Shown here: positions 3,001 to 54,125 of the stretch, piece after piece
How the letters are laid out: each line of letters begins with the position of its first letter
Position numbering within the stretch: position 1 is the stretch's first letter
Assembly: GCA_964438075.1 (NCBI GenBank)
Contig: CAYTIW010000007.1
Location: 1 to 64,000, forward strand
Reading direction: 5' to 3'
Source of the DNA: an uncultured Planctomycetales bacterium
Lineage (GTDB): Bacteria > Omnitrophota > Gorgyraeia > Zapsychrales > Fredricksoniimonadaceae
DNA: 64,000 bases
Position numbers and translations under genes: made by a program
Notes under the pieces: generated by a model
Told to the model about the DNA's origin: nothing
The model's database searches: none
Seen by the model: only the letters and a program-made list of their open reading frames with translations

Positions 3001-6000
3001 GATGTTAACTGGACCGATCTGAGCGTTCTGACCGATGCCGGGGTCAACTGGACAGACATGGAGACCTTGTCCCACAGTAATCTTAATTGGTCAGATCTGG
3101 AAGTGATGACCAACGCCGCAGTTAATTGGGCCGACTGGTCCTCTATCAGCACCTCGGCTATAAATTGGGGTGATATGAACACACTGACCTCATCAGCTAT
3201 TAATTGGTCCTCTCTGGGAGATATGACCATCAGCGGAATTAACTGGTCTAGTTTCTCTGACATGACCGTGAGCGGGATAAACTGGACCGACATCGGAACC
3301 ATGACCGACTCGGGTGTGAATTGGGAAGACATCGGCATTATGAGCTCTGCCGGAGTGAACTGGACAGATATGGAGAAAATGTCCCTGACAGGGATCAACT
3401 GGAGCGATATCCAGTCCATGAGCGATACGGGTATCAATTGGACCGACCTCGGTGCCATGGCCGCGGCAGGTGTTAATTGGTACGATATGGAATATATGAG
3501 CGATGCCGGTATTAACTGGATGGACATTGAAACCTTGACGAATAGAGGGATCAATTGGGTTGATATCGAATCTTTATCACTAGCCGGTATCAACTGGTCG
3601 GATATTGGTACTATGAGCAGTTCTGGTGTCAACTGGACGGATCTGCAGACTTTAACTGAGACAGGTGTTAACTGGGATGACCTGCAGTCTCTGACTTTTG
3701 CGGGAGTGAATTGGAGCGATCTCGGCTCCTTAAGTACCTCTAGTGTAAATTGGGCTGACCTGGTTTCGATGACTCAAAATGGCGTTAACTGGACCGACTT
3801 GTCGGTGATGTCTGATGCCGGAGTCAATTGGTCCGATTTCTCTGTCTGGACGGCTGCCGGGGTCAACTGGGATGATTTCGCCGTATTGACAGATTCAGGC
3901 ATCAATTGGAACGATTTGGAAATGATGAGCGAATCATCATTGAACTGGGCCGATCTGGCGTCTATGACCCTCAATGGTGTGAATTGGGCTGATCTCTCCA
4001 CATTGAGCGAAGCGGGCGTTAATTGGACCGACCTGTCTGTAATGAACTCTATGGGTGTAAATTGGGCTGACCTGAATGCTATGACAACTGCGTCGGTAAA
4101 TTGGGAAAGTTTGGAAGTGTTGACCAAGACCGATATCAATTGGGATGACCTGCAGACTATGACTGTTTCAGGAGTTAATTGGATGGACCTTGCGACAATG
4201 TCCGATGCCGGTGTGAACTGGATCGATATAGAGTCCATGAGTAAGGCTGATGTTAATTGGACCGGCATCGAATATCTATCCCAGGCAGGCGTGAATTGGG
4301 ATGATCTCTCAGTATTGAGTGACTCAAGTGTGAACTGGATGGATATGGAATACATGAGTAAAGCTGCGGTTAACTGGACCGACCTCATGCAGATGAGCGT
4401 TTCCGGAGTCAATTGGCTGGACCTGGGCGATATGACAGGGGCAGGGGTTAACTGGAGTGATATCAACGCCATGACTTCGGCCGGTGTGAATTGGACTGAA
4501 CTCCAATCCATGTCCGAGACCGGTGTGAATTGGGATGACCTGTCGGCCCTGACTTCGGCAGGTGTTAATTGGGTTGATCTGGAGGCGATGACAGTGTCCG
4601 GGGTGAACTGGACCGACCTCATGCAGATGAGCGTTTCCGGAGTCAATTGGCTGGATCTGGGCGATATGACAGGGGCGGATGTTAACTGGAGCGATATCAG
4701 TACTCTCTCTGCCGCCGGTATTAATTGGGACGACATCACTACCCTCAGTACGGTCGGGGTCAACTGGGCGGACCTTTCGACCATGTCTTCGGCGGGAGTG
4801 AACTGGTATGATGTTGGTTCTTTGTCTTTAGCTGGTGTCAATTGGGAATATTTCGAAGAGTTCTCTACGGCAGGTGTCAATTGGGATGACTTGTCCATAT
4901 TGAGTTCTGCAGGGGTCAACTGGACCGACCTCAATTCGATGACTTCGGCTTCGGTGAATTGGGAAGGTTTGGAGATATTGACCAAGACCGATATCAATTG
5001 GGATAATTTCGGGGCGATGACAACTGCCGGTACGAATTGGGATGCGTTCTCGTTCATGACCACGGCCGGCGTCAACTGGGATGAATTAGCTTCAATAACA
5101 TATACCGGTGTCAACTGGGATGACCTGCAATCGTTGACCGATGCTGGAATTAATTGGAATGACCTGCAGTATATGACCTCTACAGCTGTCAATTGGACCG
5201 GTCTGGAGGCGATTTCAAACACTACTGTGAACTGGGAAGATCTCGCCTCTATGACCTCGGCGGGAGTGAATTGGAATAGTCTGGAATTTATGTCCAGCGC
5301 CGGGATCAACTGGTCCGATTTCGAGTCCTTGACCAATAAGGGTATAAATTGGGATGACATCAGCAAAATGGCCAGTTCGACTATCAATTGGTCAGATTTC
5401 GAGAACCTGACCGAAGCCGGAATAAATTGGGATGGATTAAGTGTCATGTCAGAAACGGCTATCAATTGGGATGACCTTATGGCTTTGAGTGTATCGGGCA
5501 TCAATTGGCTCGATTTTGCATATTTGTCTCAAGCCGGGGTCAATTGGGAAGATATCGAGAGCATGACAGTAGCTGGTGCTAACTGGGAAGACCTGACGAT
5601 GATGGGCAGTGCGGGCATCAATTGGGATGCCCTGTCCTATATGTCCGCCGCCAATGTGAACTGGGATAGTTTGCAATCATTGTCCGTGGCTCAGATGAAC
5701 TGGCAGGGACTGAGTGACATCTCTCTCGCTGGTGTAAATTGGGAGAACATCGGCGATATGTCCAGAGATGGGGTCAATTGGCTTGACGTAGGGGCATTAT
5801 CCGAAGCGGGTATCAACTGGTCGGATTTCACTCAACTGACGAACACCGGTATCAACTGGGAAGATGTAAGGACTTTGAGCGAAACCGGTATTAATTGGAA
5901 CAGCATCGGCGAAATGGCAGAGGCGGGTATCAATTGGCAGGGCATCTACACCTTGAGCTATGCGGACATTAACTGGGAGGGGATCGGTGATATGTCCACC

Positions 6001-6390
6001 AGTGGTATTAATTGGCTGGATATCGGCCTGCTTTCCCAGGCCGGGGTCAACTGGGCTGAGATCGCAACGATGTCGTATGCGGACTTGAATTGGGATGAGA
6101 TAGCGGTAATGACGGATAGCGGGATCAACTGGTATAGCATAGGCGATATGACAGCTTCGCAGATCAACTGGAACGACGTGGCGGTTATTTTTGAATCCAG
6201 TATCAATTGGGATGATCTGAGTGTGATGTCTACCCGAGAGGTGAACTGGGCTGACGTCACTGTTATGACCACTTCCGATGTTAACTGGGGTGACGTGGGT
6301 GGTTTCTCCACGACCGGTGTCAATTGGGCAGATATGGCCAGGATGACCCATTCTAATATAGACTGGAGAGAAATGAGTTATTTCTCTGCC
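1..6390 (+). repeat. In-frame 39-bp (13-codon) tandem repeat array with diverged copies
   Basis: AAYTGG (Asn-Trp) recurs every 39 nt from base 4 to about 6365. Copies differ at many synonymous and non-synonymous positions. A local 26-aa super-period alternates ..[IL]SK[TS]G.. with ..MT[VLM][AS]G.. units. Confidence 0.9.
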
Positions 6391-7083
6391 AATGCCAGGA
6401 CCTTGGTTTCGAATATCCAGGATATATTCGATAATATCGGAAGCGATCCCACAACGACTGACCAAACGACCTTGTTCGGCAAGATCAACCGGATGATCAC
6501 CGCTATCAACGATGTTGATATCAATACGATCGTCAGCATATTGGGAACAGCTGCGGATACCAAAGCTTCCAATACTATCTTTGGAGATCTTAATGCGGTC
6601 CAAGCGGCTATAGGTGATCCCAGCACCAGCAGCACTGTTTTCGAGCAAATGGATGTCATTCAGGACTTTGCCAAGAAAGGCAAGGACAGCGCCGATGCCG
6701 CTTTAGGGGTCACCAAGAATATAGAAAGCGATCTGGGGGTTTTTGGCCAGACCCCGACGACATATGAGAAACTCAGGCAGCTGGAGGATTATATCAAGAA
6801 TATTCAGCAGGCTGCGCTGGAATTGGGACCAAAACAGGAAGCCACGAGCGCGGTTGCCGATCAACTGGTAGAAATGGTACGTCAGATAATCAATGAACAG
6901 GCAAAGCAGGTCGGCTTGGAGACGACCGGGATGATGATAGAGAAACTCTCCAAACAGCAGTCCGAAGATGTCGAAAAGATCAACGAGAAGCTGGAAGAGA
7001 TCGATGCCAAGATCAGGGCTTTGCAGGAAGCTATGAAAGCCGATGACGTCGTTATCAAGACCTGGTTTGAAAGTGAGGAGTAA
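1..7083 (+). CDS. Giant tandem-repeat protein with its N-terminus cut by the window edge (2360 aa visible). About 160 consecutive 13-aa units G-[VI]-N-W-x-D-[LIM]-x-x-[LM]-[ST]-x-x, then a ~250-aa non-repeat helical C-terminal domain. Function unknown.
   Basis: One open frame runs from base 1 to TAA at 7081-7083, and it is already open at base 1, so the true start lies upstream. The translation is almost pure 13-aa periodicity (TGVNWTDIEVISK, TGINWTDLENISK ...) with invariant N-W and a D two residues after W. The last recognisable unit is near aa 2110 (SNIDWREMSYFSA). It is followed by a D/E/K/Q-rich tail ending IKTWFESEE. I recognise no family. Confidence 0.85.
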   Translation: MNWEDVEALTKTGVNWTDIEVISKTGINWTDLENISKTGINWADLNALTLAGINWTDIETISKTGINWTDLEVMTVEGVNWSDINKLSDTGINWADIDVLSRTGINWLDIESMSNRGINWYDLSALSTTGINWLDIEVISDTGINWMDVASLSSSGINWNDMEMFSNAGINWSDLESMTRTGVNWTDLQIMSNSGINWNDLDIMSTVSVNWTDIATLSSSGVNWTDIEALSTTGINWSDLNAMTLAGVNWADIEALSHTGINWLDLGTMTLSGVNWDDINSMTLAGVNWSDIETISQAGINWTDIETWTKAGINWTDFETMTVSGINWDDLQEATNSAVNWTDIQALSLAGINWIDFGSLSNAAINWTDLEAMTKEGINWTDVSALSNIGMNWSDLQSMTISAINWADMVTMSSAEINWEDLAVMSSTGLNWEDIGILSAAGVNWSDLDIMSRSEINWSDLSVLTSSAINWMDMEVLSKSGLNWADLESMTVAGVNWTDIEALSKTGVNWIDIERLSSSDINWEDIERISTSSINWTDIEQLSVSGINWADMATLSASEINWADIAAMSSEAVNWLDLEVLSKTGVNWADWEAMTVAGVNWTDMEAISKAAINWTDLETMTVTGVNWMDLESISKTGINWSDLNAMTVAGVNWTDMEVLSKSAVNWMDMQTLSSAAINWVDMSAMSLAGVNWTDLEILSEQGVNWIDIETLSTAGINWEDIQSLTTSSINWGDIEVISKTGVNWEDISALSSTGVNWTDLQSMTMAGVNWTDLETISKTEINWMDLSAMTLSGVNWNDISAMSANGVNWTDLQSMSMAGVNWTDMEYLTTAEVNWSDLGTLSNAGINWLDIDSLSNTGINWSDINIMSDAGVNWSDIAYLTSSNVNWTDLESLTKTSVNWADLESITKAAINWTDLESMTKASVNWTDLAALTVTGVNWADIEAISKSAINWTDLQSMTMAGVNWTDLGAMTLTGINWDDMQVLHENGVNWDDLAFMSRADVNWTDLSVLTDAGVNWTDMETLSHSNLNWSDLEVMTNAAVNWADWSSISTSAINWGDMNTLTSSAINWSSLGDMTISGINWSSFSDMTVSGINWTDIGTMTDSGVNWEDIGIMSSAGVNWTDMEKMSLTGINWSDIQSMSDTGINWTDLGAMAAAGVNWYDMEYMSDAGINWMDIETLTNRGINWVDIESLSLAGINWSDIGTMSSSGVNWTDLQTLTETGVNWDDLQSLTFAGVNWSDLGSLSTSSVNWADLVSMTQNGVNWTDLSVMSDAGVNWSDFSVWTAAGVNWDDFAVLTDSGINWNDLEMMSESSLNWADLASMTLNGVNWADLSTLSEAGVNWTDLSVMNSMGVNWADLNAMTTASVNWESLEVLTKTDINWDDLQTMTVSGVNWMDLATMSDAGVNWIDIESMSKADVNWTGIEYLSQAGVNWDDLSVLSDSSVNWMDMEYMSKAAVNWTDLMQMSVSGVNWLDLGDMTGAGVNWSDINAMTSAGVNWTELQSMSETGVNWDDLSALTSAGVNWVDLEAMTVSGVNWTDLMQMSVSGVNWLDLGDMTGADVNWSDISTLSAAGINWDDITTLSTVGVNWADLSTMSSAGVNWYDVGSLSLAGVNWEYFEEFSTAGVNWDDLSILSSAGVNWTDLNSMTSASVNWEGLEILTKTDINWDNFGAMTTAGTNWDAFSFMTTAGVNWDELASITYTGVNWDDLQSLTDAGINWNDLQYMTSTAVNWTGLEAISNTTVNWEDLASMTSAGVNWNSLEFMSSAGINWSDFESLTNKGINWDDISKMASSTINWSDFENLTEAGINWDGLSVMSETAINWDDLMALSVSGINWLDFAYLSQAGVNWEDIESMTVAGANWEDLTMMGSAGINWDALSYMSAANVNWDSLQSLSVAQMNWQGLSDISLAGVNWENIGDMSRDGVNWLDVGALSEAGINWSDFTQLTNTGINWEDVRTLSETGINWNSIGEMAEAGINWQGIYTLSYADINWEGIGDMSTSGINWLDIGLLSQAGVNWAEIATMSYADLNWDEIAVMTDSGINWYSIGDMTASQINWNDVAVIFESSINWDDLSVMSTREVNWADVTVMTTSDVNWGDVGGFSTTGVNWADMARMTHSNIDWREMSYFSANARTLVSNIQDIFDNIGSDPTTTDQTTLFGKINRMITAINDVDINTIVSILGTAADTKASNTIFGDLNAVQAAIGDPSTSSTVFEQMDVIQDFAKKGKDSADAALGVTKNIESDLGVFGQTPTTYEKLRQLEDYIKNIQQAALELGPKQEATSAVADQLVEMVRQIINEQAKQVGLETTGMMIEKLSKQQSEDVEKINEKLEEIDAKIRALQEAMKADDVVIKTWFESEE

Positions 7084-7086: not shown

Positions 7087-8433
7087 ATGGTGGGACAGGG
7101 GCGTGGTTTTAAATTCCCGGTCCGGCGGATCGTTGCTCTGTGGTCTTTTGTTCTGTATCTTTTTTTATCCCTGCCTGTCTTCTCGGATGTTGTGATCAAC
7201 GTGTTGGCTGTTAACGGTTCCGACAAGACGATCGAGAAAGATATCCAGTTCAGTCTTCCAGGGGAGATCACGCCCCCTGACCTGGTAGACGCGGCAGGGC
7301 TGAATTTGGACTATAATTTTAATGATTCTGGATACTATTTGCATGGCAAAGTATCTTTGCAGGCCAAGGAAACGAAGACCCTGCGCGTAAAGATACGCGA
7401 TGTTTGGCAATTATCCGACCAGGATGTAAATGCCATCAGGACCGAGATCGAGCAAGGCTTCAAGGAGATGGGCGCCGAACGTAACAAGGATAATGGAGAG
7501 CTATTAAGGAAAAAGCTGGTTGATAAACTGGAGTATATCTTAGCCGACCAAGCCCAGAACGCGGAGAACGTTGAAACACGCATCGATACTTATCGTAATC
7601 ATATCCAGACGCTGAATGAAATAAGGTCCCAAGCCAGGGCCATTGATTATTGGCGTTCGGATGCCAAGGAACCAGAGAACAATAAGACTGTTTATTACAA
7701 AGTTTTGGTTGAGAACCCCGGCGATAAGACCAGGAAGGTGAAGCAGCATCATTATCTGCCGAAAGAGGTCCTGCCGGAATATATTATCGACCGCAAAGGG
7801 TACGAGATACGTTTTGATGACAAAAAAAATCGGCCCTTTCTCTTTAAAGAAGAGGACATAGCTTCGAAGGAAAAAAAAGAAGTAAGTTTTGCTATCAGAG
7901 ACAAATGGTATATTCCTCAGAACGAAATAAGCTATGTACGTGAAAGGGCCAAATATGTAAATGATATCCTGGCCAAGTCCAAATATGTGGAGACCTCGCG
8001 GGGGCTTTTTAATAATATCACTAATTACCTGGACTTGATCGATATGCTGCAGAAGATCGAGCAGCCGGATATTCAGCAACATATCGGGGCTTATCGGCTT
8101 AATGAGGACCGGTTCGAGAAGGCCAAATCTGATCTGGATGATATAGAAAAGCTGCTTTCGCGCCACCGGGCCGAACTGGAGAAGAGCAAGGTCAAGAATG
8201 TCTTGCAGAAGATACAGTCCATGAAATCGCTGGCGCGTGTTTCTCAGGCGATTTTTGACAAGAAACCGACCGTGAATGCCGCTTGGAAGATAATCGGCAG
8301 CGTGCTGATCTTCTTAGGTATTTTTTCTATCATACATTTTGCGACTTGGTTTGCGCGTTCCTCGCGTGAAAGAAAACAGGAGCTTTTAAAAGAGGCAGAG
8401 GCTCAAGCGCATTCGCAGACCAAATCTGGATAA
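7087..8433 (+). CDS. Bitopic or secreted-and-anchored protein with two internally duplicated beta-rich modules and helical spacers. Function unknown.
   Basis: The ATG lies 4 nt after the preceding stop. There is an N-terminal hydrophobic signal/anchor (IVALWSFVLYLFLSLPVFS) and a C-terminal TM (AAWKIIGSVLIFLGIFSIIHFATWF). aa 34-107 and aa 201-274 align to each other (N.G(S)DKT, LP.E, both ending IRD[VK]W). Confidence 0.7.
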   Translation: MVGQGRGFKFPVRRIVALWSFVLYLFLSLPVFSDVVINVLAVNGSDKTIEKDIQFSLPGEITPPDLVDAAGLNLDYNFNDSGYYLHGKVSLQAKETKTLRVKIRDVWQLSDQDVNAIRTEIEQGFKEMGAERNKDNGELLRKKLVDKLEYILADQAQNAENVETRIDTYRNHIQTLNEIRSQARAIDYWRSDAKEPENNKTVYYKVLVENPGDKTRKVKQHHYLPKEVLPEYIIDRKGYEIRFDDKKNRPFLFKEEDIASKEKKEVSFAIRDKWYIPQNEISYVRERAKYVNDILAKSKYVETSRGLFNNITNYLDLIDMLQKIEQPDIQQHIGAYRLNEDRFEKAKSDLDDIEKLLSRHRAELEKSKVKNVLQKIQSMKSLARVSQAIFDKKPTVNAAWKIIGSVLIFLGIFSIIHFATWFARSSRERKQELLKEAEAQAHSQTKSG

Positions 8434-8448: not shown

Positions 8449-9915
8449 ATGAGCATAAAAGTACAGTATACGGAAGTCGGATACGTGAAAGCCATCCGCG
8501 GTTGTATCGTTATCGTGACCGGTTTTGGCAATTGCATTAACGGCCAGTTGATCCGGTTCGGATACGGCACTATCGGGATGGTTGTCGGGTTCACGGAGAC
8601 AGAGGCCCAGGTGCTGATCCTGAAAGAGACAGAAAAGATACGTACCGGCCAGGAGGCGCAAGCTTCGGTTGAACCTCTGGTCACACCCGTTGGAAAGAAT
8701 TTTATCGGCCGTATAGTTAATCCGCTAGCCGAGCCGTTGGATGGGCTGGGGCCGATCGTGCCGGATGATATTGCACCGATCTTTCCGGAATCGCCTCCCA
8801 TCCTGGACCGGCAGCCTTTGAACAAGACCTTGGAAACCGGGATCAAAGTCCTCGATGCCATGATCCCTATCGGGCGCGGTCAGCGGGAATTGATCCTCGG
8901 CGATAAAATGACCGGGAAGACCACCTTTGTTACGGATACGATCGTCAACCAGAAAGATGCCGGGGTAATATGTATTTATTGCGGTATCGGCAAGGCGCGT
9001 TCCAGCCTGGCAAAAGTGGTGCAGCTTTTCAAGGACCGCGGATGTTTCGATTACAGCATAATAGTTTCCGCCTCGGCATCCTCACCGCCTGGCCAGCAGT
9101 ATCTGGCCCCGTACGTGGCCTGTTCATTGGGGGAGTATTTCATGCGTCGCGGACAGGATGTTTTTATCGGATTCGACGATTTCACTAAGCATGCCTGGTC
9201 TTACCGGGAGATATCCTTACTATTGGGACGGCCGCCGGGGCGTGATTCTTATCCGGGAGACATATTTTATCTTCACTCCAAAATGATCGAACGCGCCTGT
9301 TTCCTTTCCAAGGAGAAAGGCGGAGGGTCCATGACTTTCTTCCCGATCGTTGAGATACTCGAAGGGGATCTTACCGCCTTCGTGCCCTCGAACCTGGTCT
9401 CCATGACAGACGGTCAGATATACCTCAGCGCCCAGCTTTTCGGTGAAGGGCAGAAACCGGCCCTGGATCTAGGCTTGTCCGTTTCCCGGGTTGGATCCAA
9501 GGTCCAATGGCCGGCTATCAAGGCGTTGTCCGGGCCTCTGCGTTTGGAGTACCTGCAGTACCGCGAATTGCTGCGGATTTCCAAGTTAAAGACCTCCGGT
9601 CAGTCTGAGGACATGAAGCAGAAATTGAAACGCGGTTCGATACTGACCGCCATCCTCCGGCAGTACAAGGATTCGCCGGTGTGCCAGGAAATGCAGGTGT
9701 TGATATTCTACGCCTTTAACAAGAAGTATCTGAACGATTTCACAATCGAGCAGGTCGACGCTTTTCAGAATAGCTGTCTGGAGTATACCAAGAACGTGAA
9801 GCCGGAATTTTTGACGCTATTGAGAGAGCGCCGCAAGTTGGACCCCGAGATCGAGAAATTGATGGATGAAGTTATAAATGGCCTGTCAGCGCAAGTAACT
9901 GGGAAGGGGCATTAA
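8449..9915 (+). CDS. atpA: F1-ATPase alpha-subunit homolog (divergent)
   Basis: Walker A GDKMTGKTT; LLGRPPGRDSYPGDIFYLHSKMIERA (canonical [24 protein letters not shown]); GGGSMTFFPIVE; SVSRVGSKVQ. The resemblance to alpha runs the full length. Confidence 0.85.
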   Translation: MSIKVQYTEVGYVKAIRGCIVIVTGFGNCINGQLIRFGYGTIGMVVGFTETEAQVLILKETEKIRTGQEAQASVEPLVTPVGKNFIGRIVNPLAEPLDGLGPIVPDDIAPIFPESPPILDRQPLNKTLETGIKVLDAMIPIGRGQRELILGDKMTGKTTFVTDTIVNQKDAGVICIYCGIGKARSSLAKVVQLFKDRGCFDYSIIVSASASSPPGQQYLAPYVACSLGEYFMRRGQDVFIGFDDFTKHAWSYREISLLLGRPPGRDSYPGDIFYLHSKMIERACFLSKEKGGGSMTFFPIVEILEGDLTAFVPSNLVSMTDGQIYLSAQLFGEGQKPALDLGLSVSRVGSKVQWPAIKALSGPLRLEYLQYRELLRISKLKTSGQSEDMKQKLKRGSILTAILRQYKDSPVCQEMQVLIFYAFNKKYLNDFTIEQVDAFQNSCLEYTKNVKPEFLTLLRERRKLDPEIEKLMDEVINGLSAQVTGKGH

Positions 9916-9978: not shown

Positions 9979-10248
9979 ATGCCACCATTATATAAGGGGA
10001 ATTTCCGTTGCGTGATCTTGAGCGCCAAGCGTTTGGTATTTGAGGCTGAGATAAACAGCCTTTTTATTACCGGTGATAGGGGAGAGTATGAGCTTTTGGC
10101 ATATCATTATCCTCTTATCGGTATCGTTAAAGGCGATATTGTGATCAATTGGGAAAAACGTTTGCCGGTAAGGGGCGGGGTGGTGCGGTTCTTCGCTAAT
10201 GAATGCAATGTCATGATCGAAGAAGCCCCAGCTCAGAAAACCAACTGA
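9979..10248 (+). CDS. atpC: F1 epsilon-subunit-like protein with the beta-sandwich domain only
   Basis: 89 aa. GEYELLAYHYPLIGIVKGDIVI ... VRGGVVRFFANECNVMIEEA matches the epsilon N-terminal domain pattern (EG.GIL.GH.P....L..G.+.+ ... VSGGF.EV..N.VTILA). The C-terminal two-helix hairpin is absent. Confidence 0.6.
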   Translation: MPPLYKGNFRCVILSAKRLVFEAEINSLFITGDRGEYELLAYHYPLIGIVKGDIVINWEKRLPVRGGVVRFFANECNVMIEEAPAQKTN

Positions 10249-10263
10249 GATTAGAGGGAGGCC

Positions 10264-10482
10264 ATGTTAGCTGAAACATTCATTATTATTACGGTAATGT
10301 TCATAGCTGTTATGGGGCCGAACGTCGTCATCGGTATGCTGGGCTATGCCGTGATCAAAGCGCTAAGTAGAAATCCCTCTGCCGCTTCCAAGATCTTCGG
10401 AGCGATGGTCATCATGTTGATATTCGTGGAGGCGATATCGATCGTGGCCATGATGGTGATTTTCCAACTTTTTGCGAGGTAA
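10264..10482 (+). CDS. atpE: Fo c-subunit (proteolipid) homolog
   Basis: 72-aa two-helix hairpin with polar loop SRNP (canonical R-[QN]-P) and a helix-2 carboxylate in LIFVEAISIV. Helix 1 lacks the usual GxGxGxG packing motif. Confidence 0.7.
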   Translation: MLAETFIIITVMFIAVMGPNVVIGMLGYAVIKALSRNPSAASKIFGAMVIMLIFVEAISIVAMMVIFQLFAR

Positions 10483-10485
10483 TCG

Positions 10486-10716
10486 ATGCAATTTCAGTAT
10501 TGGCCCGAAGGATTGATATTTATAGCCCTGTTCACGTTTATTATCGGGTTCCCCTGTGTCATGGTGGCTATATTGGGAACAAAACTTATTAATTATATAG
10601 GTCAGTATCCGTCCAAGTGTGCCAGGCGTCAGATGATAGCGTGTTTGCAGCTTTTTGTGATTGAGCTGATCTCGTTCGCGATCTTGGCGCTTTTTTATCA
10701 TATCTTTTCCGATTAA
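10486..10716 (+). CDS. Second, divergent c-subunit-like two-helix hairpin protein
   Basis: 76 aa, starting 3 nt after the c-subunit stop. Two hydrophobic helices, loop GQYPSK, and a helix-2 Glu in LFVIELISFA at a position analogous to the c-subunit ion-binding carboxylate. Confidence 0.45.
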   Translation: MQFQYWPEGLIFIALFTFIIGFPCVMVAILGTKLINYIGQYPSKCARRQMIACLQLFVIELISFAILALFYHIFSD

Positions 10717-10730: not shown

Positions 10731-11486
10731 ATGACGTTCGAATTGATCGTTGGATTCTTCATACTAAATGCCCTTGTTACAGGGGCTATTATTCTGGCCC
10801 TGCACTGGGTCTTTGTTTCCAGTGTCGACGGAGCCAAACAAAGGCTGGAACGCGATGCCGAGTCTGCCCGGGCCCGCGAGGCGGAACTTAACCGCAAGAT
10901 CAGGCAGGCTGATGAAGAGCTAACGGCCCGGAAGAAAGAACTCGACCTTGTCGAACAGCGGATGAAAGGCCAGCTTGAGCAAGAGACCGAAAAACACCGG
11001 GAAGACCTGGTAAACAAGGCCCGTAGCGAGGCTGAAGAGATCATCGCCAAAGCACAGATAGCGGCTGAAGGTTTGCGCAAGGAGGCTGAGAAACAGATGG
11101 AGATAAAGATCATCGATTATTCGACCAGGATACTTAACGAGATCTTTTCTAGAAAGGCCAAAGCGGCTTTTGAAAAAGATCTGGTCGAAGAGTTCGTTTC
11201 CCAACTTAAAGAGATCGATATGTCCAAGATCAGCCTCGAGATCAAGAAGGCCGAAGTGGTTACCGCCTGCGGGATATCCGATGAGGACCTGAAACGTATT
11301 GCGGATATGGTCAGGGTAAAGACCGGCCGCGACATAGCTTTGGAGACCAAGGTGTCGGATGAGTTTGTGGCCGGGGTGGTGGTCAAGTTCGGCAGCCTGC
11401 ATTTGGACGGAAGCGTGCGGAACGCCATTCGGGAATCGGCGTTAGCCCTAAAAGGCGAAGTTGATAAGGGGAATTTACGAAAGTAA
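10731..11486 (+). CDS. atpF: Peripheral-stalk b-delta fusion-like protein
   Basis: An N-terminal TM (IVGFFILNALVTGAIILALHWVF) is followed by a long E/K/R/A-rich coiled coil typical of subunit b. The C-terminus DEFVAGVVVKFGSLHLDGSVRNAIRE resembles the delta/OSCP C-terminal signature (GG..+++GD...DGSVR..L). Confidence 0.6.
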   Translation: MTFELIVGFFILNALVTGAIILALHWVFVSSVDGAKQRLERDAESARAREAELNRKIRQADEELTARKKELDLVEQRMKGQLEQETEKHREDLVNKARSEAEEIIAKAQIAAEGLRKEAEKQMEIKIIDYSTRILNEIFSRKAKAAFEKDLVEEFVSQLKEIDMSKISLEIKKAEVVTACGISDEDLKRIADMVRVKTGRDIALETKVSDEFVAGVVVKFGSLHLDGSVRNAIRESALALKGEVDKGNLRK

Positions 11487-11498: not shown

Positions 11499-13791
<2,293 letters not shown>

Positions 13792-13793: not shown

Positions 13794-15539
13794 ATGTTGA
13801 AGTCAGCGGTAAATAAAGCAGTATGCGAAGCGCTTCTCAAAAGTACTCTTTTGGACGAGCCTAACCTCCAGAAATATGCCGCTGAGGCCCATCGGCTGAA
13901 CCAGAAGATATCCTTTTACCTCGTCCAGCAAGGCATTTTGAAGACCCCCGCCGTTCTCCGGGCCTTGGCAGAACATTTCCACTTGGATATCGTCAATCTG
14001 AAGACGGTCAATGTCGACCGTATGGCCATCGACCGGGTCCCGGTCAAGTTCGCTTCCTATTACCGATTCATGCCCTTGGCCGTGGACGGGAACCGTTTGA
14101 CAGCTGCTGTTTCGGAACCGCTGGATATACATAATCAGGACGACATACGCGCGCATTTAGGCCTGGAACCGCGTTTTGTCCTGGCCTCGCCGTGGGATAT
14201 CGATGAAGCTCTGAAGCGTTATTACGGCCTGGCTTCCGAGACCATTGACCAGATATTGACCAAGGACCCGCAGAAACGGTCGGCCTTTTCCGAAGACCGT
14301 TCTTCCAAGATAGAGGATATCGAGAAGCAGAGCGAAGACCCGTCGGTCACTAAACTGGTCAATCAGATCATTTTGGAGGCCTACCAGAAGCGGGCTACGG
14401 ATATCCACATCGAACCCTACCGTAACCGGGTCCGTTTCCGCTATCGTATCGACGGGGTTCTGCTCGATGCCAATCTCCCTCCGGAAGCAAAGCATTTTCT
14501 CCTGGCCATAATATCGCGTATAAAGATCATGGCCAACCTGACCATCACCGAGAAGCGGCTTCCCCAGGACGGGAGCGCGGTGGTACGCGTGAAGGAACAG
14601 GCCCTGGACCTGCGCGTTTCAACCATCCCCACCCAGCACGGGGAGAGCATGGTCATACGACTTTTGCCGACCACTACCACGCTGCTGGACCTGGAGAAGC
14701 TAGGGTTTAATGCCGATAATGCCAGCAAGTTCAGGGAACTGATACGCCATCCGCATGGCGTTATTTTTGTTACGGGGCCTACCGGTAGCGGAAAGACCAC
14801 CACCTTGTACGCCTGCCTGAACGAGATCAACGACCCGACCCGCAAGATCATCACTATCGAGGACCCGATAGAGTATGAGATGGAGGGGATCACTCAGATA
14901 CAGATCAACTCCGGCATCGATTTCGGTTTCGCGACCGGCTTGCGCAGCATCCTGCGGCACGATCCGGACATCCTCATGGTGGGAGAAGTGCGGGACCGGG
15001 AGACGGCCGACATCGCTATTCGTACTGCCCTGACCGGCCATTTGGTGTTCTCCTCGCTGCACACTAATGATGCCGCAACCGGGGTGACACGCTTGGTTGA
15101 TATGGGGGTGGAACCTTATCTGGTGGCCTCGAGCGTGCAAGCTTTCATTGCCCAGCGTTTGGTGAGGGTCATATGCCCGCAGTGCAAAGAGGAGGACCGC
15201 GAGCCGCTGATGGAGATAAGGAAGGAGATAGCCAGGAGTTTAGGTTTCTCCTCGCTGGATGAAATAAAATTCTTCAAGGGCCGGGGCTGTGACCAATGCA
15301 ACAATACGGGTTATTATGGCCGTACGGCTATTTATGAAATATTGGAGATAACCGAAGCCATCCGCTCCGCGATCCTGGACAAGCCGAGGGCGGAAGAGAT
15401 AAAACGCATAGCCGTACACGGAGGGATGCGCACGCTGCGGCAGGACGGCTGGAAGAACGTTATAGCCGGTGTTACCACTCCGGCCGAGGTCTTGAACGTA
15501 ACGCTTAAGGAGACGGCTGGGGCATCCTCCGCGGTCTAG
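13794..15539 (+). CDS. gspE: Type II secretion / type IV pilus assembly ATPase (GspE/PilB family)
   Basis: The ATG lies 2 nt after the atpD stop. N-terminal T2SSE_N-like domain, Walker A GPTGSGKTT, Walker B/Asp box DILMVGEVRD, and a tetracysteine CPQC...CDQC. Confidence 0.9.
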   Translation: MLKSAVNKAVCEALLKSTLLDEPNLQKYAAEAHRLNQKISFYLVQQGILKTPAVLRALAEHFHLDIVNLKTVNVDRMAIDRVPVKFASYYRFMPLAVDGNRLTAAVSEPLDIHNQDDIRAHLGLEPRFVLASPWDIDEALKRYYGLASETIDQILTKDPQKRSAFSEDRSSKIEDIEKQSEDPSVTKLVNQIILEAYQKRATDIHIEPYRNRVRFRYRIDGVLLDANLPPEAKHFLLAIISRIKIMANLTITEKRLPQDGSAVVRVKEQALDLRVSTIPTQHGESMVIRLLPTTTTLLDLEKLGFNADNASKFRELIRHPHGVIFVTGPTGSGKTTTLYACLNEINDPTRKIITIEDPIEYEMEGITQIQINSGIDFGFATGLRSILRHDPDILMVGEVRDRETADIAIRTALTGHLVFSSLHTNDAATGVTRLVDMGVEPYLVASSVQAFIAQRLVRVICPQCKEEDREPLMEIRKEIARSLGFSSLDEIKFFKGRGCDQCNNTGYYGRTAIYEILEITEAIRSAILDKPRAEEIKRIAVHGGMRTLRQDGWKNVIAGVTTPAEVLNVTLKETAGASSAV

Positions 15540-15634
15540 TGCCTTTTTGCCCATTTTTACTTCAGCCCCCTGTCCTGGTGTTTTGCATCGTTGGGATCGT
15601 TCGATGACTCTAAATAATGAAAGGGGCCGGTCCC

Positions 15635-16846
15635 ATGCCGGTTTTTGCCTATAAAGCCAAAAAAGACAATGCTGAGACGGTCCTGGGCGATATCGTGGCC
15701 CGGGATGCCAACGAGGCTATCGAGATGGTCAGCCGTCGCGGTCTCTTGCCGGTCGCCGTTGAAGAGAAGGAAGGAGAGGGTGCGGCATCTGTATTGGGAT
15801 TGTCTGCCGGAAATGTCCGTCGAAAAGACATCATGGTGTTCACGGGGCAGTTGGTGAGCTTGCTGAAGGCCGGGGTCCCTCTTCTGCAATCGATAGAACT
15901 GTTGTCAAGGAAGACACGCAACGCCAAACTAGCCTATGTTCTGTCCGATATCGCGCTGAACATACGCAACGGCAAAACTTTCTCCGCAGGACTGGAGGAT
16001 CATCCGGATATCTTTGAGCCCCTGTATACGGCTATGGCCCGGGCGGGTGAGGAAGGCGGGAGCATTCGGGAAATGCTGGCTGAGATGGCTGATTATTATC
16101 GCAAGCAGGAAGATATCGCCCTAAAGGTCCGCGGCGCGCTGACTTACCCGGCGGTCATGTTGGTAGCCGGTATCGGCACGGTCATTTTTGTGCTTACTTT
16201 CGTGCTGCCTAAGATCAAGGTGCTTTTCAAGGATATGCATACGGCGCTCCCCTTGCCAACGGTGATAGTACTCAAGTTGAGCGAGATGGTGCAGAATGGG
16301 TGGCCCGTGATCCTGGCTATTGCGGTCCTGGGCGCTTTATCATGGCAATCCCTCCGTCGCATGGCAGCTTTCCGGAGGGCCGTTGGCCAGGTCATTTTTG
16401 CCTTGCCATGGGTAAGGGAGTTTGCCTTGAAAATAGAGATGCAGAGGTTCACCAGGACCATGAGCTTCCTGCTGGAAGGCGGCATCCCTATATTGCGGGC
16501 TTTGGAGCTGGCCATCCCGACACTGTCAAATGAAACTTTGAAGGATGACCTGGGCAAGTGCAAAGATATGATAGCGGACGGCGCCACCTTTGGGGACACG
16601 CTAAGACGTTCCGTTCTCATACCTGATATAGTGCCGTCATTGGTAGCGGTAGGGGAAGAGGCCGGCGCGCTCGCACAATCACTCAGGGATATAGCGGAGA
16701 CTTACGAGCAGGAGATCGGCGAAAGCACCAAGGCCATGTCGACCCTGCTGGAACCGCTCCTGATTCTCCTGGTGGGATCGGTGATAGCCTTCATTGTTTT
16801 TGCTATGTTGATGCCTATATTTCAGATGGATATTTTCGCCCAATGA
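15635..16846 (+). CDS. gspF: Type II secretion / T4P platform protein (GspF/PilC family)
   Basis: I chose the MPVFAYKAKK start (ATG 15635, AAAGGGG about 9 nt upstream) over the ORF-track start at 15617. It has the typical GspF layout with two repeated cytoplasmic domains and three TM segments, and ends LLMPIFQMD. Confidence 0.88.
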   Translation: MPVFAYKAKKDNAETVLGDIVARDANEAIEMVSRRGLLPVAVEEKEGEGAASVLGLSAGNVRRKDIMVFTGQLVSLLKAGVPLLQSIELLSRKTRNAKLAYVLSDIALNIRNGKTFSAGLEDHPDIFEPLYTAMARAGEEGGSIREMLAEMADYYRKQEDIALKVRGALTYPAVMLVAGIGTVIFVLTFVLPKIKVLFKDMHTALPLPTVIVLKLSEMVQNGWPVILAIAVLGALSWQSLRRMAAFRRAVGQVIFALPWVREFALKIEMQRFTRTMSFLLEGGIPILRALELAIPTLSNETLKDDLGKCKDMIADGATFGDTLRRSVLIPDIVPSLVAVGEEAGALAQSLRDIAETYEQEIGESTKAMSTLLEPLLILLVGSVIAFIVFAMLMPIFQMDIFAQ

Positions 16847-17685
16847 CCCTGACATGGAAGTTCATAGCGCCGGTGGCCGTGTTATGGTTAGTTATGGTTA
16901 TGGGCCCCGCGCGGGCCGTTGAAGAGCCATTTCGTGAACTTAAGGGCGATCATTTTATTGTCAAATATTTGCTTGAGGATGAACGCAGCCGGGCTGTCCA
17001 GATATTAACCCGCGCGGAGTTATATTATAAGAGGGTGGCTGAAAGTATCGGTTATAACCGTTACCAGGAATACTGGACTTGGGAACGGCGCGTGACCGTA
17101 GTTCTTTATCCTGACCAACTGTCCTACGCCAAGTTCACCGGACAGCCACAGTGGTCCAAGGGGTATGCCAGCCGGGATTCCAAACTGTTCAGGACCAAGG
17201 TGATCGTTTCCTATGATGGCCAGCCTGAATTCCTGGAGGAGATATTGCCGCATGAGATCGCACATTTGATCCTGTGGGATTTTCTCGGATTTACCCGTAA
17301 GGTGCCGATATGGTTCGAGGAGGGCTTGGCCCAGCGGGAGGAGGATGGCAAGAGAGCCGTTGTGCAGCAGGCCATGAAGGAAGTTGTCATTTCCGGGAAC
17401 GATATCCCTTTTGCCACCTTCCATGGACTGGATGTGGGCAGGATCACGGACCCGGTGCAGGTTTCATTGTTCTATGCCCAAAGTCTCTCGGTGGTGGAGT
17501 TCATGATCGGTAAATACGGCCGTGATGCTTTCAGGAACTTTTGTCGTGAGATACGGGAAGGCCGGGCGTTCGAGGAGGCTTTGCCCCGCGCCTACCCGGC
17601 CATCTTTCGGACGGTGGATGATCTGGGATCGAAATGGAAGAATTATATGCAGAATGAAGTTGTTTCTTCAGGAGGCGGGCTATGA
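16843..17685 (+). CDS. Secreted HExxH zinc metallopeptidase-like protein (Peptidase_MA_2-like)
   Basis: ATGA-type 4-nt overlaps with both gspF (upstream) and gspG (downstream). Signal peptide VAVLWLVMVMGPARA, HEIAHL, then WFEEGLAQ as the third-ligand Glu context. Confidence 0.6.
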   Translation: MTLTWKFIAPVAVLWLVMVMGPARAVEEPFRELKGDHFIVKYLLEDERSRAVQILTRAELYYKRVAESIGYNRYQEYWTWERRVTVVLYPDQLSYAKFTGQPQWSKGYASRDSKLFRTKVIVSYDGQPEFLEEILPHEIAHLILWDFLGFTRKVPIWFEEGLAQREEDGKRAVVQQAMKEVVISGNDIPFATFHGLDVGRITDPVQVSLFYAQSLSVVEFMIGKYGRDAFRNFCREIREGRAFEEALPRAYPAIFRTVDDLGSKWKNYMQNEVVSSGGGL

Positions 17686-18089
17686 ATAACAGCAGAGGGT
17701 TCACGCTGGCAGAGATAATGCTGGTGGTCATCATAATAGGGGCCTTGGCGGCCATGGTCGTCCCCCGCTTGTCCGGCCGGTCCGAACAGGCCCGTATCGC
17801 CGTAGCCAAGGCGGATATAAAGACCAACATCCCTACCGCTTTAAAAATGTACGAGTTGGACAACGGAATGTATCCAACTACAGAGCAGGGTCTCCAGGCT
17901 CTCCGGGAAAAACCATCGTCCGCCCCGGCCCCCAGGTATTGGCACGGGCCTTATTTGGAACAGGATCCGGTGGACCCTTGGGGTAATCCTTACTTTTACG
18001 AATCACCGGGGACCCATCGCTCAGATTACGACTTATATTCCAAAGGCAAGGACCAGAATTCTCCCGATGGTTACATCACCAACTGGTAA
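17682..18089 (+). CDS. gspG: Major type II secretion pseudopilin GspG
   Basis: Prepilin leader MNNSRG|FTLAEIMLVVIIIGALAAMVVP with Glu+5. The GspG signature is LDNGMYPTTEQGLQAL...GPYL...DPWGNPYFYESPG...YDLYSKGKD. Confidence 0.9.
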   Translation: MNNSRGFTLAEIMLVVIIIGALAAMVVPRLSGRSEQARIAVAKADIKTNIPTALKMYELDNGMYPTTEQGLQALREKPSSAPAPRYWHGPYLEQDPVDPWGNPYFYESPGTHRSDYDLYSKGKDQNSPDGYITNW

Positions 18090-18528
18090 CAGGACCGCCC
18101 ACCGCCGAAGCTTTTTCCCGGACTCAAGGGTGGGGCTGACTTTCGTCGAGGTCATGGTCACCTCGGTAATACTATCGGCGGGGCTGGTGGCGATTTACCG
18201 GTCTTTCTTCATCGCAGCTGACGTCGTGCAGCATCTTTCCAACCGGCTTTACGCCCTGAATCTGCTGGAAAACAAGATCACAACGATAGAAAGGGATTTC
18301 CGGTCGCGGAAAGATTTCGATATCGGCCCCTTGACTGAAGACGCCGTGGTGAATAATCATCCCGTGGTTTTTCAGTATCGAGTGGAACTAAAGCCGGTGG
18401 GCAGTCTTCTGACAGTGTTCCAGCTCGACATTTCCTTGTCCTGGGAGGAAAGGGGAAGGTTTCGGAGCGTTTCCCGTTCGGCCTATTTTTCCGGTGTGAC
18501 CCCCTTGGAAAAGGGGGATGCCTCATGA
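18067..18528 (+). CDS. Minor pseudopilin (GspH/GspI-like)
   Basis: A basic leader is followed by G|LTFVEVMVTSVILSAGLVAI (Glu+5 present). The start is uncertain, with a 23-nt overlap with gspG. An in-frame GTG at 18130 would leave almost no leader. Confidence 0.55.
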   Translation: MVTSPTGNRTAHRRSFFPDSRVGLTFVEVMVTSVILSAGLVAIYRSFFIAADVVQHLSNRLYALNLLENKITTIERDFRSRKDFDIGPLTEDAVVNNHPVVFQYRVELKPVGSLLTVFQLDISLSWEERGRFRSVSRSAYFSGVTPLEKGDAS

Positions 18529-19148: not shown

Positions 19149-19149
19149 T

Positions 19150-20178: not shown

Positions 20179-20244
20179 ATCAGTTTTGGGTTGATTGACG
20201 GAAAAAGCTTAGTCTATAATGTAGCCATCAAATGCGGAGAAAAC

Positions 20245-21744: not shown

Positions 21745-21755
21745 GGAGTCCCGCC

Positions 21756-22391: not shown

Positions 22392-22425
22392 TCTTTTAGC
22401 CGCCGGCGTTTCGCCTGTCCCCATT

Positions 22426-24949: not shown

Positions 24950-24960
24950 GAAGAAATGAT

Positions 24961-25767: not shown

Positions 25768-25810
25768 ATGTAGACTGATCCGAGTTGTCAGGTCTGGTTC
25801 TTATCAAAAT

Positions 25811-25846
25811 AAAAAAACCTTCTTCCGGAATGGAAGAAGGTTTTTT
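25811..25846. terminator. Bidirectional rho-independent terminator
   Basis: A perfect 9-bp stem CCTTCTTCC (25818-25826) / GGAAGAAGG (25832-25840) with a 5-nt loop, flanked by an A7 run on the left and a T6 run on the right. It lies between the GT2 gene (+) and tRNA-Ala (-). Confidence 0.8.
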
Positions 25847-25894
25847 GTTTTGATGAGGCCGGACCTTTCGGCACGATGTCCGGCATATAAAAAC

Positions 25895-25971: not shown

Positions 25972-26086
25972 ATATAGTGTATAAATATGTTCGAGCTGAA
26001 AATTTGCTCGAGAGGGGATATAGTAACAAAAGCATGGTAAAAAAACAAGTGTCTATCCGCGAAAACAAGAGCCCGCTCCGGCAGTC

Positions 26087-54088: not shown

Positions 54089-54125
54089 GGGAAATCATTA
54101 TTCCAGGAGGGCAAATACAACTTTA

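Follow-up and report, generated by a model that had tools for sequence, protein, structure and literature searches.

Omnitrophota encode a "symbiotic" F-type ATPase (sF-ATP), a non-respiratory F-type homolog found beside type-4a pilus genes, at a distance of no more than 10 kb, across Omnitrophota classes (Seymour et al. 2023, PMC10066038). That study treats only the phylogeny and co-location of alpha and beta, and its main text makes no mention of subunit c, the c-ring, atpE, or atpB. Most members of one class, Gorgyraeia, are reported to have V/A-type ATPase subunits (10.64898/2026.06.07.730766). Here, we analyze an operon within a 64,000-nucleotide stretch of DNA, hereafter the window, and conclude that it is the sF-ATP operon of PMC10066038. 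That work does not cover the pair of c-like proteins reported below (c1 and X), the b-delta fusion, the protein p448, or the lack of subunit a, and our literature search found no description of a c pair or a missing subunit a in the sF-ATP operon.

The type 2 (G1) and type 3 (F1-like X0) ATPases of Mycoplasma resemble the enzyme in the window in being extra F-type-derived ATPases that lack subunit a and are tied to the cell surface (PMC12994834, PMC3369863). Their alpha subunit, like the one here, lacks the N-terminal delta-binding helix, and just upstream of alpha they encode a protein that carries a signal peptide and is anchored in the membrane by its C terminus, the place taken here by p448. 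The Mycoplasma enzymes differ, however, in that they have no homologs of c, b, or delta and have instead a 12-TM protein and a small cytoplasmic protein; no 12-TM protein was found in the window cluster. Moreover, alpha and beta of the window fell under the cutoffs of the Mycoplasma-family NCBIfam models (glide_MMOB1660, 391 against a cutoff of 600; MSC_0619_alpha, 283 against 520; glide_MMOB1670, 414 against 850; MSC_0618_beta, 380 against 570), and the canonical atpA and atpD models scored higher.

The N-ATPase (atpDCQRBEFAG; Dibrova et al. 2010, PMC2881411) has no separate delta gene, as is the case here. Its long b subunit carries the C-terminal region of delta, and the window b subunit has its best match in the alt_F1F0_F0_B model. 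In both systems, epsilon is followed by genes for two additional small membrane proteins. The N-ATPase differs, however, in having a subunit a, an Na+-type c, and a three-helix AtpR with two membrane arginines, and its gene order contrasts with the order alpha-epsilon-c1-X-b-gamma-beta seen here. Moreover, alpha, beta, and gamma of the window were far under the N-ATPase (alt_F1F0) cutoffs.

Heteromeric proteolipid rings are found in the F-type enzyme of Acetobacterium woodii, with a c1/c2/c3 ring, and in V-type enzymes, with a c/c'/c'' ring. As here, several c paralogs serve one enzyme, and one of them may lack the carboxylate. Those rings, however, include a duplicated four-helix subunit and are accompanied by subunit a, whereas the window encodes single hairpins and subunit a is missing.

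RESULTS

c1 and X are encoded in tandem

Two open reading frames on the forward strand, spanning positions 10264 to 10716, encode proteins of 72 and 76 amino acids separated by 3 nt, exactly as the original prediction described. The first, c1 (10264..10482), starts with ATG at 10264, stops with TAA at 10480-10482, and is preceded by a Shine-Dalgarno-like sequence, GAGGGAGG, at 10254..10261 on the same strand. The second, X (10486..10716), follows after the trinucleotide TCG, starts with ATG at 10486, and stops with TAA at 10714-10716. A further Shine-Dalgarno-like sequence, GAGG (10476..10479, forward strand), was read 6 nt ahead of the X start, within the final codons of c1, and because of that position, translation of X is probably coupled to that of c1. 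The spacing between the two genes is short in most loci. Read-through to a four-helix c1-X fusion, for which the two genes are in frame here, was considered and rejected, as the frame is shared in only 43 of 86 loci. No natural c1-X fusion was found in the 87 loci.

c1 is a member of the subunit c family. It is a two-helix hairpin that exceeds the cutoff of Pfam ATP-synt_C (PF00137; 31.3 bits against 24, residues 11-67), and a profile of 40 c1 sequences matched solved c subunits with an E value of 2e-5. Every NCBIfam AtpE equivalog cutoff lay far above the c1 score (at best, 27.3 bits against 128 for that model; for TIGR01260, 21 bits against 43.95). Close homologs of c1 numbered 567 and were mostly named Omnitrophica.

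Both c1 and X resemble canonical AtpE in having two membrane helices per hairpin, seen as two hydrophobic segments in each, and a conserved cytoplasmic-loop proline 18 residues ahead of the position of the helix-2 carboxylate. The loop of c1 keeps the R-N-P of AtpE (S-R36-N37-P38-S), and its carboxylate, E56 within FVEAISIV, aligns with the glutamate of the Chloroflexus and yeast c subunits. The ligands for Na+ are absent from c1, which has E-A instead of E-S/T and I23 at the Q position. Canonical AtpE has a GxGxGxG motif in helix 1, whereas neither that motif nor AxAxAxA was present in c1 of 87 species, where the corresponding stretch reads V16-x-G18-x-S/N20-x-V22-x-A/G24. The glycine zipper is also absent from X, in which the aligned positions are I/V-x-V/I-x-C24-x-G/F/L-x-A28, and the prediction that both proteins lack it was correct. 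We note that the GxGxGxG packing motif is typical of the subunit c family but not strictly defining.

X is related to c1

Libraries were uninformative about X. There was no Pfam or NCBIfam match to the window protein (none to PF00137 at E ≤ 1), PF00137 matched 2 of 53 X family members weakly (best E, 0.0094), and an X profile searched against PDB sequences gave no match at E ≤ 10. A word-indexed search with X returned only 4 close relatives, and an exhaustive profile search was needed to retrieve the family, which forms 55 clusters at 50% identity. The X alignment contains no conserved stretch of 7 to 10 columns, and the genome scan was seeded with the c1 alignment instead.

When the X family (53 sequences) was aligned to the c1 family with hhalign, however, the two matched with a probability of 98.1% and an E value of 1.3e-13 over 73 aligned columns. 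The hairpins share a register, such that an X residue number is that of c1 plus 4, and identity in the alignment is about 21%, in keeping with the little identity noted originally. The original prediction had made the c-like nature of X depend on profile similarity to c subunits, and that similarity was found by way of the c1 family. The AF2 model of X is a helix-loop-helix hairpin (helices 6-40 and 45-75; pLDDT, 81). F-type c subunits made up almost all of the top 42 PDB matches when that model was submitted to Foldseek, among them the A. woodii ring (PDB 4bem), at E values of at least 0.9 that are not significant alone. Moreover, the basic residues of X cluster in the loop, which fits a c-like topology. 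The loop follows the pattern G39-x-Y/F-P42-S/T-K/R (GQYPSK in the window), and the helix-2 carboxylate is E60 within FVIELISF; these motifs and the SRNP and FVEAISIV of c1 are as first quoted. Helix 1 holds P23-C24, and Q49, E60, and S63 share one face of helix 2. We conclude from profile comparison and modeling that X is a paralog of c.

The pair is fixed, and X evolves rapidly

Every one of the 86 loci spanning the region, which come from 80 species genomes and from metagenome contigs, has the order c1-X-b-delta, and the expectation that the pair would be kept wherever this atp variant occurs is borne out. The larger gene order is also fixed: giant protein, p448, alpha, epsilon, c1, X, b-delta, gamma, beta, GspE, GspF, and pseudopilins. 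Median identity to the window protein was 75.5% for c1 (86 species), 70.7% for alpha, and 72.9% for beta but 41.4% for X and 42.3% for b-delta. Thus, c1 is constrained like alpha and beta, and X evolves as fast as b-delta.

X could be a functionless duplicate of c, either decaying or spurious as an open reading frame, and its lack of library annotation and a mean pairwise identity of 38.5% between species would suit that idea. All 86 species, however, have an intact open reading frame. G31 and P42 never vary, C24 is found in 97% and Q49 in 91% of species, and the loop is conserved at G39, P42, S/T43, and K/R44. Moreover, conservation of X is periodic, with each helix conserved on one face only (helical moments, 0.56 and 0.60; p ~0.001), and the family comprises 55 clusters. 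These conservation data effectively refute a functionless X, and we give that explanation almost no credence.

The helix-2 carboxylate is kept less strictly in X than in c1. Of the 88 c1-type sequences that were scored, including two extra c-like copies, 85 (97%) had glutamate; it was lost from c1 in three species, as E56V in L039 and L076 and as E56I in L079. In X, E (70) or D (3) was found in 73 of 86 species (85%), with M, G, F, or Q in 12 and one further sequence gapped in the alignment. The original claim that both proteins retain the glutamate therefore holds in the window but not across the family. L039 and L076, both with E56V in c1, each carry a third c-like gene, such that extra c paralogs recur. 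Complementary loss of the carboxylate between c1 and X was considered, as the two proteins never both lack it, but chance alone gives this pattern about 60% of the time. Likewise, loss of X E60 was compared to residues in partner proteins, and the best candidates, T414 and W421 of p448 (p ~1e-3), did not withstand 3516 tests and shared ancestry.

X covaries weakly to modestly with other subunits. After removal of the alpha-plus-beta distance, residual distance correlations were 0.40 to 0.50 with p448, 0.31 to 0.33 with gamma, and 0.26 to 0.32 with epsilon by partial Mantel tests, a method known to give liberal results when the sequences share a phylogeny. There was no residual covariation of X with the membrane helix of b (r, -0.03 to -0.11).

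X may be a c-derived chaperone or regulator that helps to build the c1 ring or to gate it, without being a stoichiometric component of the functional enzyme. Such a role has been proposed for AtpI/UncI and for the AtpR protein of N-ATPases. X is likewise small, fast evolving, and encoded between epsilon and b, much like AtpQ and AtpR in N-ATPase operons (PMC2881411), and both the single conserved face of its helices and a carboxylate that is dispensable in 15% of species are compatible with such a role. X showed no similarity, however, to AtpI, AtpQ, or AtpR models (Pfam E ≤ 1) and is instead a true c homolog by the comparisons above. The conserved cytoplasmic loop (G39, P42, S/T43, and K/R44) points to a lasting cytoplasmic contact, and X is kept without exception in 86 species. 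We consider an assembly or regulatory factor improbable.

Subunit a is absent from the locus

The gene for subunit a, the partner of canonical AtpE, is not nearby here. The genes of the operon are separated by 3 to 64 nt, too little to accommodate a further gene, and no ATP-synt_A domain (PF00119) was found among the multi-TM open reading frames of the window. A query with E. coli subunit a, validated by its detection of distant a subunits in the PDB, matched no open reading frame at E ≤ 10 in 87 loci, and no subunit a was found within 10 kb on either side of the operon in any locus. Moreover, no a-like arginine is conserved within the membrane portion of X, the b helix, or the p448 helix; position 47 of X is R, K, P, or A, depending on species.

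Perhaps X compensates for the loss. It could lie beside the ring with the b-delta membrane helix, anchor the peripheral stalk in place of a, and provide a polar path (K44, Q49, E60, and S63) to the c1 carboxylates. Such a role would agree with the absence of subunit a from the operon, the window, and the 87 loci, with the adjacency of the X and b-delta genes in all loci, and with their equal rates (41% and 42% median identity). It would also agree with helices that have one conserved face and are otherwise variable and hydrophobic, like lipid-exposed helices. Substitution for subunit a is nonetheless unlikely, because X has no conserved arginine, or other cationic residue, to match the essential Arg of a and because it covaries with gamma, epsilon, and p448 rather than with the b membrane anchor. 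Moreover, there is no natural X-b fusion in the 87 loci, and subunit a has long tilted helices that a two-helix hairpin could not mimic. Of the two roles originally suggested for X, partial replacement of the missing stator thus finds little support. A heteromeric ring or other association with the rotor fits somewhat better, given the covariation with gamma, epsilon, and p448 and the extra c genes of L039 and L076.

The ATPase is embedded in a surface gene cluster

The remaining subunits are all encoded on the forward strand. Alpha (8449..9915; Pfam ATP-synt_ab) and beta (12367..13791) score above the canonical NCBIfam cutoffs, with 521.6 bits for alpha against atpA and 537.9 bits for beta against atpD. 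In the translation of beta, the P-loop (GGAGCGKT) is intact and the catalytic GER motif is present. Alpha, however, lacks the first ~20 residues of canonical AtpA, the delta-binding helix, with alignment beginning at model position 20 to 23. Epsilon (9979..10248) is 89 amino acids long and consists of the beta-sandwich domain only (Pfam ATP-synt_DE_N, 29.9 bits, residues 9-83). The b-delta fusion (10731..11486; Pfam OSCP) consists of a single membrane helix at the N terminus, a long helix, and only the C-terminal part of delta (OSCP), with residues 166-236 matching OSCP profile positions 97-168 of 172. A full delta/OSCP able to bind the alpha N-terminal helix is therefore absent, its C-terminal part being fused to b. 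Gamma (11499..12356) matches Pfam ATP-synt at 100.4 bits.

The ATPase genes are flanked by genes for p448, a giant surface protein, and pilus/secretion machinery. p448 (7087..8433, forward strand) is always directly upstream of alpha and has a signal peptide, two repeats of a beta-sandwich plus three-helix bundle (AF2 pLDDT, 88.6), and, at its C-terminal end, a single membrane helix with a basic tail. From its TM segments, synteny, and residual covariation with X (r ~0.4), we regard p448 as a candidate partner of the membrane sector. The cluster is headed by the 3' part of a giant repeat protein (1..7083, forward strand), with 13-amino-acid G-I/V-N-W-x-D repeats, and most loci have a homologous giant open reading frame at the same place. 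Directly downstream of the ATPase are T2SS/T4P-like genes (13794..18089, forward strand), identified by Pfam and synteny, that encode GspE/PilB with an MshEN domain, GspF/PilC, Peptidase_MA_2, and a GspG pseudopilin. A complex-I/Mbh-like module that pumps ions is likewise encoded in the window.

The enzyme might still be an ordinary ion-coupled F1Fo, with subunit a encoded elsewhere and c1 and X in a mixed ring, as in A. woodii or the V-type c/c'/c'' ring, and would then make or consume ATP against a gradient of ions. Retention of the carboxylate (97% of species for c1 and 85% for X) and alpha and beta scores above the canonical cutoffs would be expected of such an enzyme, and the complex-I/Mbh-like module implies that the cell needs a chemiosmotic ATPase. 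No subunit a was found within 10 kb in 87 loci, however, even though all other subunits are clustered; three species lack the c1 carboxylate; alpha has lost its delta-binding N terminus; and delta is cut to its C-terminal part. Moreover, the operon has been classed as non-respiratory (PMC10066038), V/A-type subunits are reported in most Gorgyraeia (10.64898/2026.06.07.730766), and the operon is strictly linked to T2SS/T4P and giant-protein genes. An ordinary ion-coupled enzyme is, in our estimation, quite improbable.

DISCUSSION

The c1 and X proteins belong to an F-type-like ATPase whose other subunits are alpha, beta, gamma, a short epsilon, and a b-delta fusion; no gene for subunit a lies in the operon or within 10 kb. 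The ATPase is embedded in a rigid Omnitrophota cluster that comprises the giant protein, p448, the ATPase itself, and T2SS/T4P-like genes.

How X contributes to the enzyme may be suggested by what is conserved. We tentatively favor, at slightly less than an even chance, a model drawn from the sequences in which X is a low-copy, symmetry-breaking subunit on or in the c1 ring that does not replace a, and the enzyme is most likely an ATP-driven motor. The main rotor ring would be formed by c1; we infer this because c1 is conserved like the catalytic subunits and keeps its R-N-P loop and, in 97% of species, its carboxylate. The R-N-P loop would contact gamma and epsilon. X would be an old duplicate of c1 that retained c1-like topology and loop geometry (invariant G31 and P42), in which each helix has a single conserved face, partly polar in character, and the remainder evolves fast. 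Whether on the ring or within it, X might touch the foot formed by gamma and epsilon and perhaps the membrane helix at the C terminus of p448. Subunit a would not be replaced by X. With no subunit a at the locus and a carboxylate that some species can do without, ATP hydrolysis would most likely drive the neighboring surface machinery, rather than ions driving ATP synthesis.

Some observations run against this model. X is conserved on one face per helix, and more would be expected of a protein between two invariant c1 neighbors. Placement in the rotor is at odds with the rate of X, which is that of the stator protein b-delta, and with an X gene that abuts the b gene. Finally, an enzyme that never binds or moves an ion would have little reason to keep the c1 carboxylate, as 97% of species do.

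A more speculative possibility, to which we attach a low probability, is that the enzyme acts as a trans-membrane drive shaft. An ATP-driven motor without subunit a would spin a wide, glycine-poor c1 ring, with X and the p448 helix lodged in or on the ring, much as the Voa1/Ac45 helices lie inside V-type rings. Through the periplasmic domain of p448, rotation might then reach the pseudopilus or the giant surface protein encoded alongside. If so, a rotary ATPase would perform mechanical work outside the cytoplasm rather than ion transport.

What defines a rotary F-type ATPase is a c-ring paired with subunit a, and the phylum-wide enzyme described here departs from that pairing. Its c1 subunit is as conserved as the catalytic subunits, a second c-like subunit is obligatory, subunit a has apparently been dropped from the locus, and the operon is hard-wired to pilus/secretion and giant-protein genes in ultra-small, probably predatory or parasitic bacteria. 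X represents a newly named and hitherto unannotated protein family, recognition of which allows Omnitrophota genomes to be annotated correctly. We caution that these alpha and beta genes should not be taken as evidence of a chemiosmotic F1Fo. Ultimately, if confirmed, the sF-ATP operon would offer a tractable case of a rotary ATPase repurposed away from ion coupling and of the role that the c-ring carboxylate plays when it has no ion channel partner.

RESULTS

The F-type operon is tightly packed on the forward strand and runs from alpha (8449-9915) through epsilon (89 aa; 9979-10248), the 72-aa protein c1 (10264-10482), the 76-aa protein X (10486-10716), a 251-aa b-delta fusion (10731-11486), and gamma (11499-12356) to beta (12367-13791). 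Intergenic gaps measure 3 to 64 nt and thus leave no space for an additional gene between members. The c1 stop codon (TAA) occupies 10480-10482, X starts at 10486, and a GAGG lies within the 3' end of c1, 6 nt upstream of the X start. c1 and X each contain two hydrophobic segments, and the basic residues of X are located in the connecting loop, such that X would adopt the topology of subunit c, with a cytoplasmic loop and both termini outside. The c1 and X motifs quoted in the original prediction were all found in the translations.

No gene of the operon qualifies as subunit a. Moreover, Pfam did not find ATP-synt_A among the multi-helix membrane proteins of the window, which are glycosyltransferases, an STT3-like enzyme, and a complex-I/Mbh-like module, and an E. 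coli subunit a query (identical to PDB 5t4o chain K) gave no match at E<=10 in any ORF of 87 loci, 10 kb to each side. The same query does pick up a subunits from mycobacteria, Bacillus, chloroplasts, and Chloroflexus. Alpha starts at position 20-23 of the AtpA model and so lacks the delta-binding helix (the N-terminal ~20 residues), delta is retained only in its C-terminal portion, which is fused to b and matches OSCP profile positions 97-168 of 172, and epsilon consists of the beta-sandwich domain alone, without the C-terminal helices. As read from these truncations, the peripheral stalk must join the enzyme crown in an unusual way. The P-loop and GER motif of beta and the arginine-finger region of alpha are intact in translation, which suggests that ATP hydrolysis should work. 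We conclude that the operon is of F type, a-less, delta-reduced, and catalytically intact.

c1 is a subunit c. It exceeds the Pfam ATP-synt_C cutoff (31.3 bits versus 24), and a profile of 40 c1 homologues matched solved c subunits with a best E value of 2.4e-5, in alignments that superimpose E56 on the Glu that binds the ion and G18-P19 on the G-P within the glycine motif. c1 also lies far under the cutoff of every NCBIfam equivalog model for AtpE and is not a standard AtpE. The positions of the G-x-G-x-G-x-G-x-G motif are occupied by V16, G18, S/N20, V22, and A/G24 (87 species), and the N terminus is constrained as well, E4 and T5 being invariant. c1 carries E-A, not E-S/T, and has I23 at the site of the Gln in Na+-binding rings; given both, its ion site would be of the proton type by established rules. 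Nearly all named sources among 567 c1 homologue matches are Candidatus Omnitrophica/Omnitrophota.

X is a paralogue that split from c1 long ago and has since diverged strongly. Searches with the single sequence and against libraries (Pfam, NCBIfam, PDB sequence profile) were uninformative. An exhaustive profile search delimited a discrete family (55 clusters when grouped at 50% identity), almost all of whose members are 70 to 100 aa long, and hhalign matched the 53-sequence X alignment to the c1 alignment with a probability of 98.1% (E 1.3e-13, 73 columns). The register is constant at the c1 residue plus 4, placing X P23, G31, P42, E60, and S63 on c1 P19, G27, P38, E56, and S59, respectively. 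AlphaFold2 run on the X alignment gave a helix-loop-helix (helices 6-40 and 45-75; pLDDT 81), and the top Foldseek PDB matches were almost all F-type c subunits, with E values that are nonsignificant for so simple a fold. Together, the profile match, register, and modeled hairpin indicate common descent with c1.

The pair is also conserved. When all ORFs of six metagenome loci and 80 loci from species-representative genomes were mapped by HMM and phmmer, X followed c1 in 86 of the 86 loci extending that far; thus, the proposal that X is c-like is borne out by both profile similarity and conservation. Two seeming X-c1 orders were rejected as artefacts of overlapping stop-to-stop frames. A single gene order, broken only by contig ends, was found in every locus: giant protein, p448 (a signal-peptide protein with a C-terminal membrane helix; 7087-8433), alpha, epsilon, c1, X, b-delta, gamma, beta, GspE, GspF, sometimes a Peptidase_MA_2, and a GspG-like pseudopilin. 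We conclude that two homologous c-type hairpins are obligatorily paired and that the ATPase is in fixed linkage with p448, the giant protein, and type II secretion/type IV pilus (T2SS/T4P)-like genes. One locus (L025) contains an assembly gap, and a third c-like gene is genuinely present in two others, L039 and L076.

The neighborhood has further features. The giant ORF, whose homologues head the cluster in most loci, extends past the window start; its 3' part (1-7083, forward strand) holds about 170 copies of the 13-aa repeat G-(I/V)-N-W-x-D-(L/I)-E-x-x-(S/T)-x-x (TRF periods of 39, 78, and 117 nt) and matched no Pfam family above its cutoff. Long antisense ORFs within it were dismissed as repeat artefacts. 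The T2SS/T4P-like set (13794-23232, forward strand) comprises GspE with an MshEN domain, GspF, Peptidase_MA_2, GspG pseudopilin, an unassigned minor-pilin-like ORF, a GspJ-like protein, GspK, a PilM-PilN fusion, a PilO/GspM-like protein, and a TPR protein; the ORFs tested included no secretin gene. Next to it, 23288-28618 encodes a PMT_2-type glycosyltransferase, a family-2 glycosyltransferase, and an 843-aa STT3-like oligosaccharyltransferase (minus strand), possibly a protein-glycosylation module beside the secretion genes, and a second PMT_2 protein lies at 41760-43205. G+C falls to about 0.395 at 52001-56000, compared to about 0.50 to 0.55 in most other parts. Finally, the minus strand at 58055-63764 encodes two Proton_antipo_M proteins, NADHdh, Oxidored_q2, and Oxidored_q6, which make up the membrane arm of an ion-pumping module resembling complex I or Mbh/Ech; the organism therefore probably has another way of building an ion gradient.

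As stated in the original prediction, both hairpins of the window retain the helix-2 Glu, but this is not universal across species. Of 86 species, 73 have E or D at position 60 of X and 12 have M, G, F, or Q; the remaining sequence is gapped there in the alignment. c1 E56 is kept in 85 of 88 c1-type sequences scored, two extra c-like copies included, and is replaced by V in L039 (7125-7833) and L076 (4469-5187), both of which have the third c-like gene, and by I in L079 (8192-8653), which has no extra copy. The Glu is carried by the extra copy in L076 and only by X in L039 and L079. No genome lacks the carboxylate in both c1 and X, a pattern that has a chance of ~60% at these counts and so proves nothing. 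No conserved arginine or other cationic residue was found in the membrane part of X, the b helix, or the p448 helix. Retention of the c1 carboxylate in 97% of species would be difficult to reconcile with the absence of an ion path.

The two hairpins evolve at different rates. Measured against the window proteins, the median identity over the loci was 75.5% for c1, 72.9% for beta, 70.7% for alpha, 61.2% for epsilon, 51.5% for gamma, 42.3% for b-delta, 41.4% for X, and 37.5% for p448. Thus, c1 is constrained to the same degree as the catalytic subunits, and X evolves at the rate of the peripheral stalk. Within X, G31 and P42 are invariant, followed by S/T43 (100%), C24 (97%), G39 (95%), P23 (94%), Q49 (91%), and K/R44 (87%). 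Conservation is helically periodic in both helices (moments of 0.56 and 0.60 versus about 0.2 in shuffles; p about 0.001), with one conserved face per helix, that of helix 2 bearing Q49, E60, and S/T63, and a variable hydrophobic surface elsewhere. A heteromeric ring had been proposed; the single conserved face per helix counts against full membership of X in such a ring.

Covariation gave indirect evidence on where X sits and bears on the other proposed role, partial substitution for the stator. Pairwise protein distances over 51 to 65 species were stripped of the alpha+beta or alpha+beta+GspE component and the residuals correlated. X correlated with p448, its C-terminal helix region included (r, 0.40 to 0.50), gamma (0.31 to 0.33), and epsilon (0.26 to 0.32), each at a permutation p of 0.0005 in tests that are liberal under shared ancestry. 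Values were 0.05 to 0.12 with whole b-delta, -0.03 to -0.11 with the b membrane helix, and 0.07 to 0.09 with c1, whose variation is too small to be informative. Because b-delta evolves as fast as X and gives no signal, fast proteins are not merely covarying. As a lead, X covariation favors the rotor side (gamma and epsilon) and p448 over the stator.

DISCUSSION

The operon itself has been reported before. Seymour et al. 2023 (PMC10066038) described a "nonrespiratory," "symbiotic" F-type ATPase of Omnitrophota, found it at <=10 kb from type-4 pilus genes in 57 of 66 contigs encoding both, and likened it to the Mycoplasma type 2/3 F1-like ATPases; the main text mentions neither subunit c, c-ring, atpE, nor atpB. 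Type II secretion-like loci beside giant genes were reported by West-Roberts et al. (10.1101/2023.11.21.568195). A 2026 preprint (10.64898/2026.06.07.730766) found alpha and beta to be common in complete Omnitrophota genomes, gamma to be present in just 30 of 176 when thresholds are strict, and V/A-type subunits to occur in most Gorgyraeia members. The Mycoplasma type 2/3 enzymes are without c, b, or delta and have their own 12-helix protein; they also encode, before alpha, a signal-peptide protein with C-terminal anchors, which p448 resembles in general layout and gene position. The b-delta fusion agrees with the N-ATPase b subunit (AtpF), which also carries the C-terminal part of delta. The literature examined contained no account of the c1/X pair, and a membrane sector made up of c1, X, and b-delta, with no a, appears to be undescribed.

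The analysis establishes that X is c-like and conserved, and the observation behind the original prediction is correct and not ordinary. We infer that the ring turned by gamma and epsilon would be built of c1 and that X may be a low-copy, c-derived subunit that either breaks the symmetry of the ring or docks onto it, touching the rotor foot and perhaps p448. The machine would be powered by ATP hydrolysis, without classical ion pumping.
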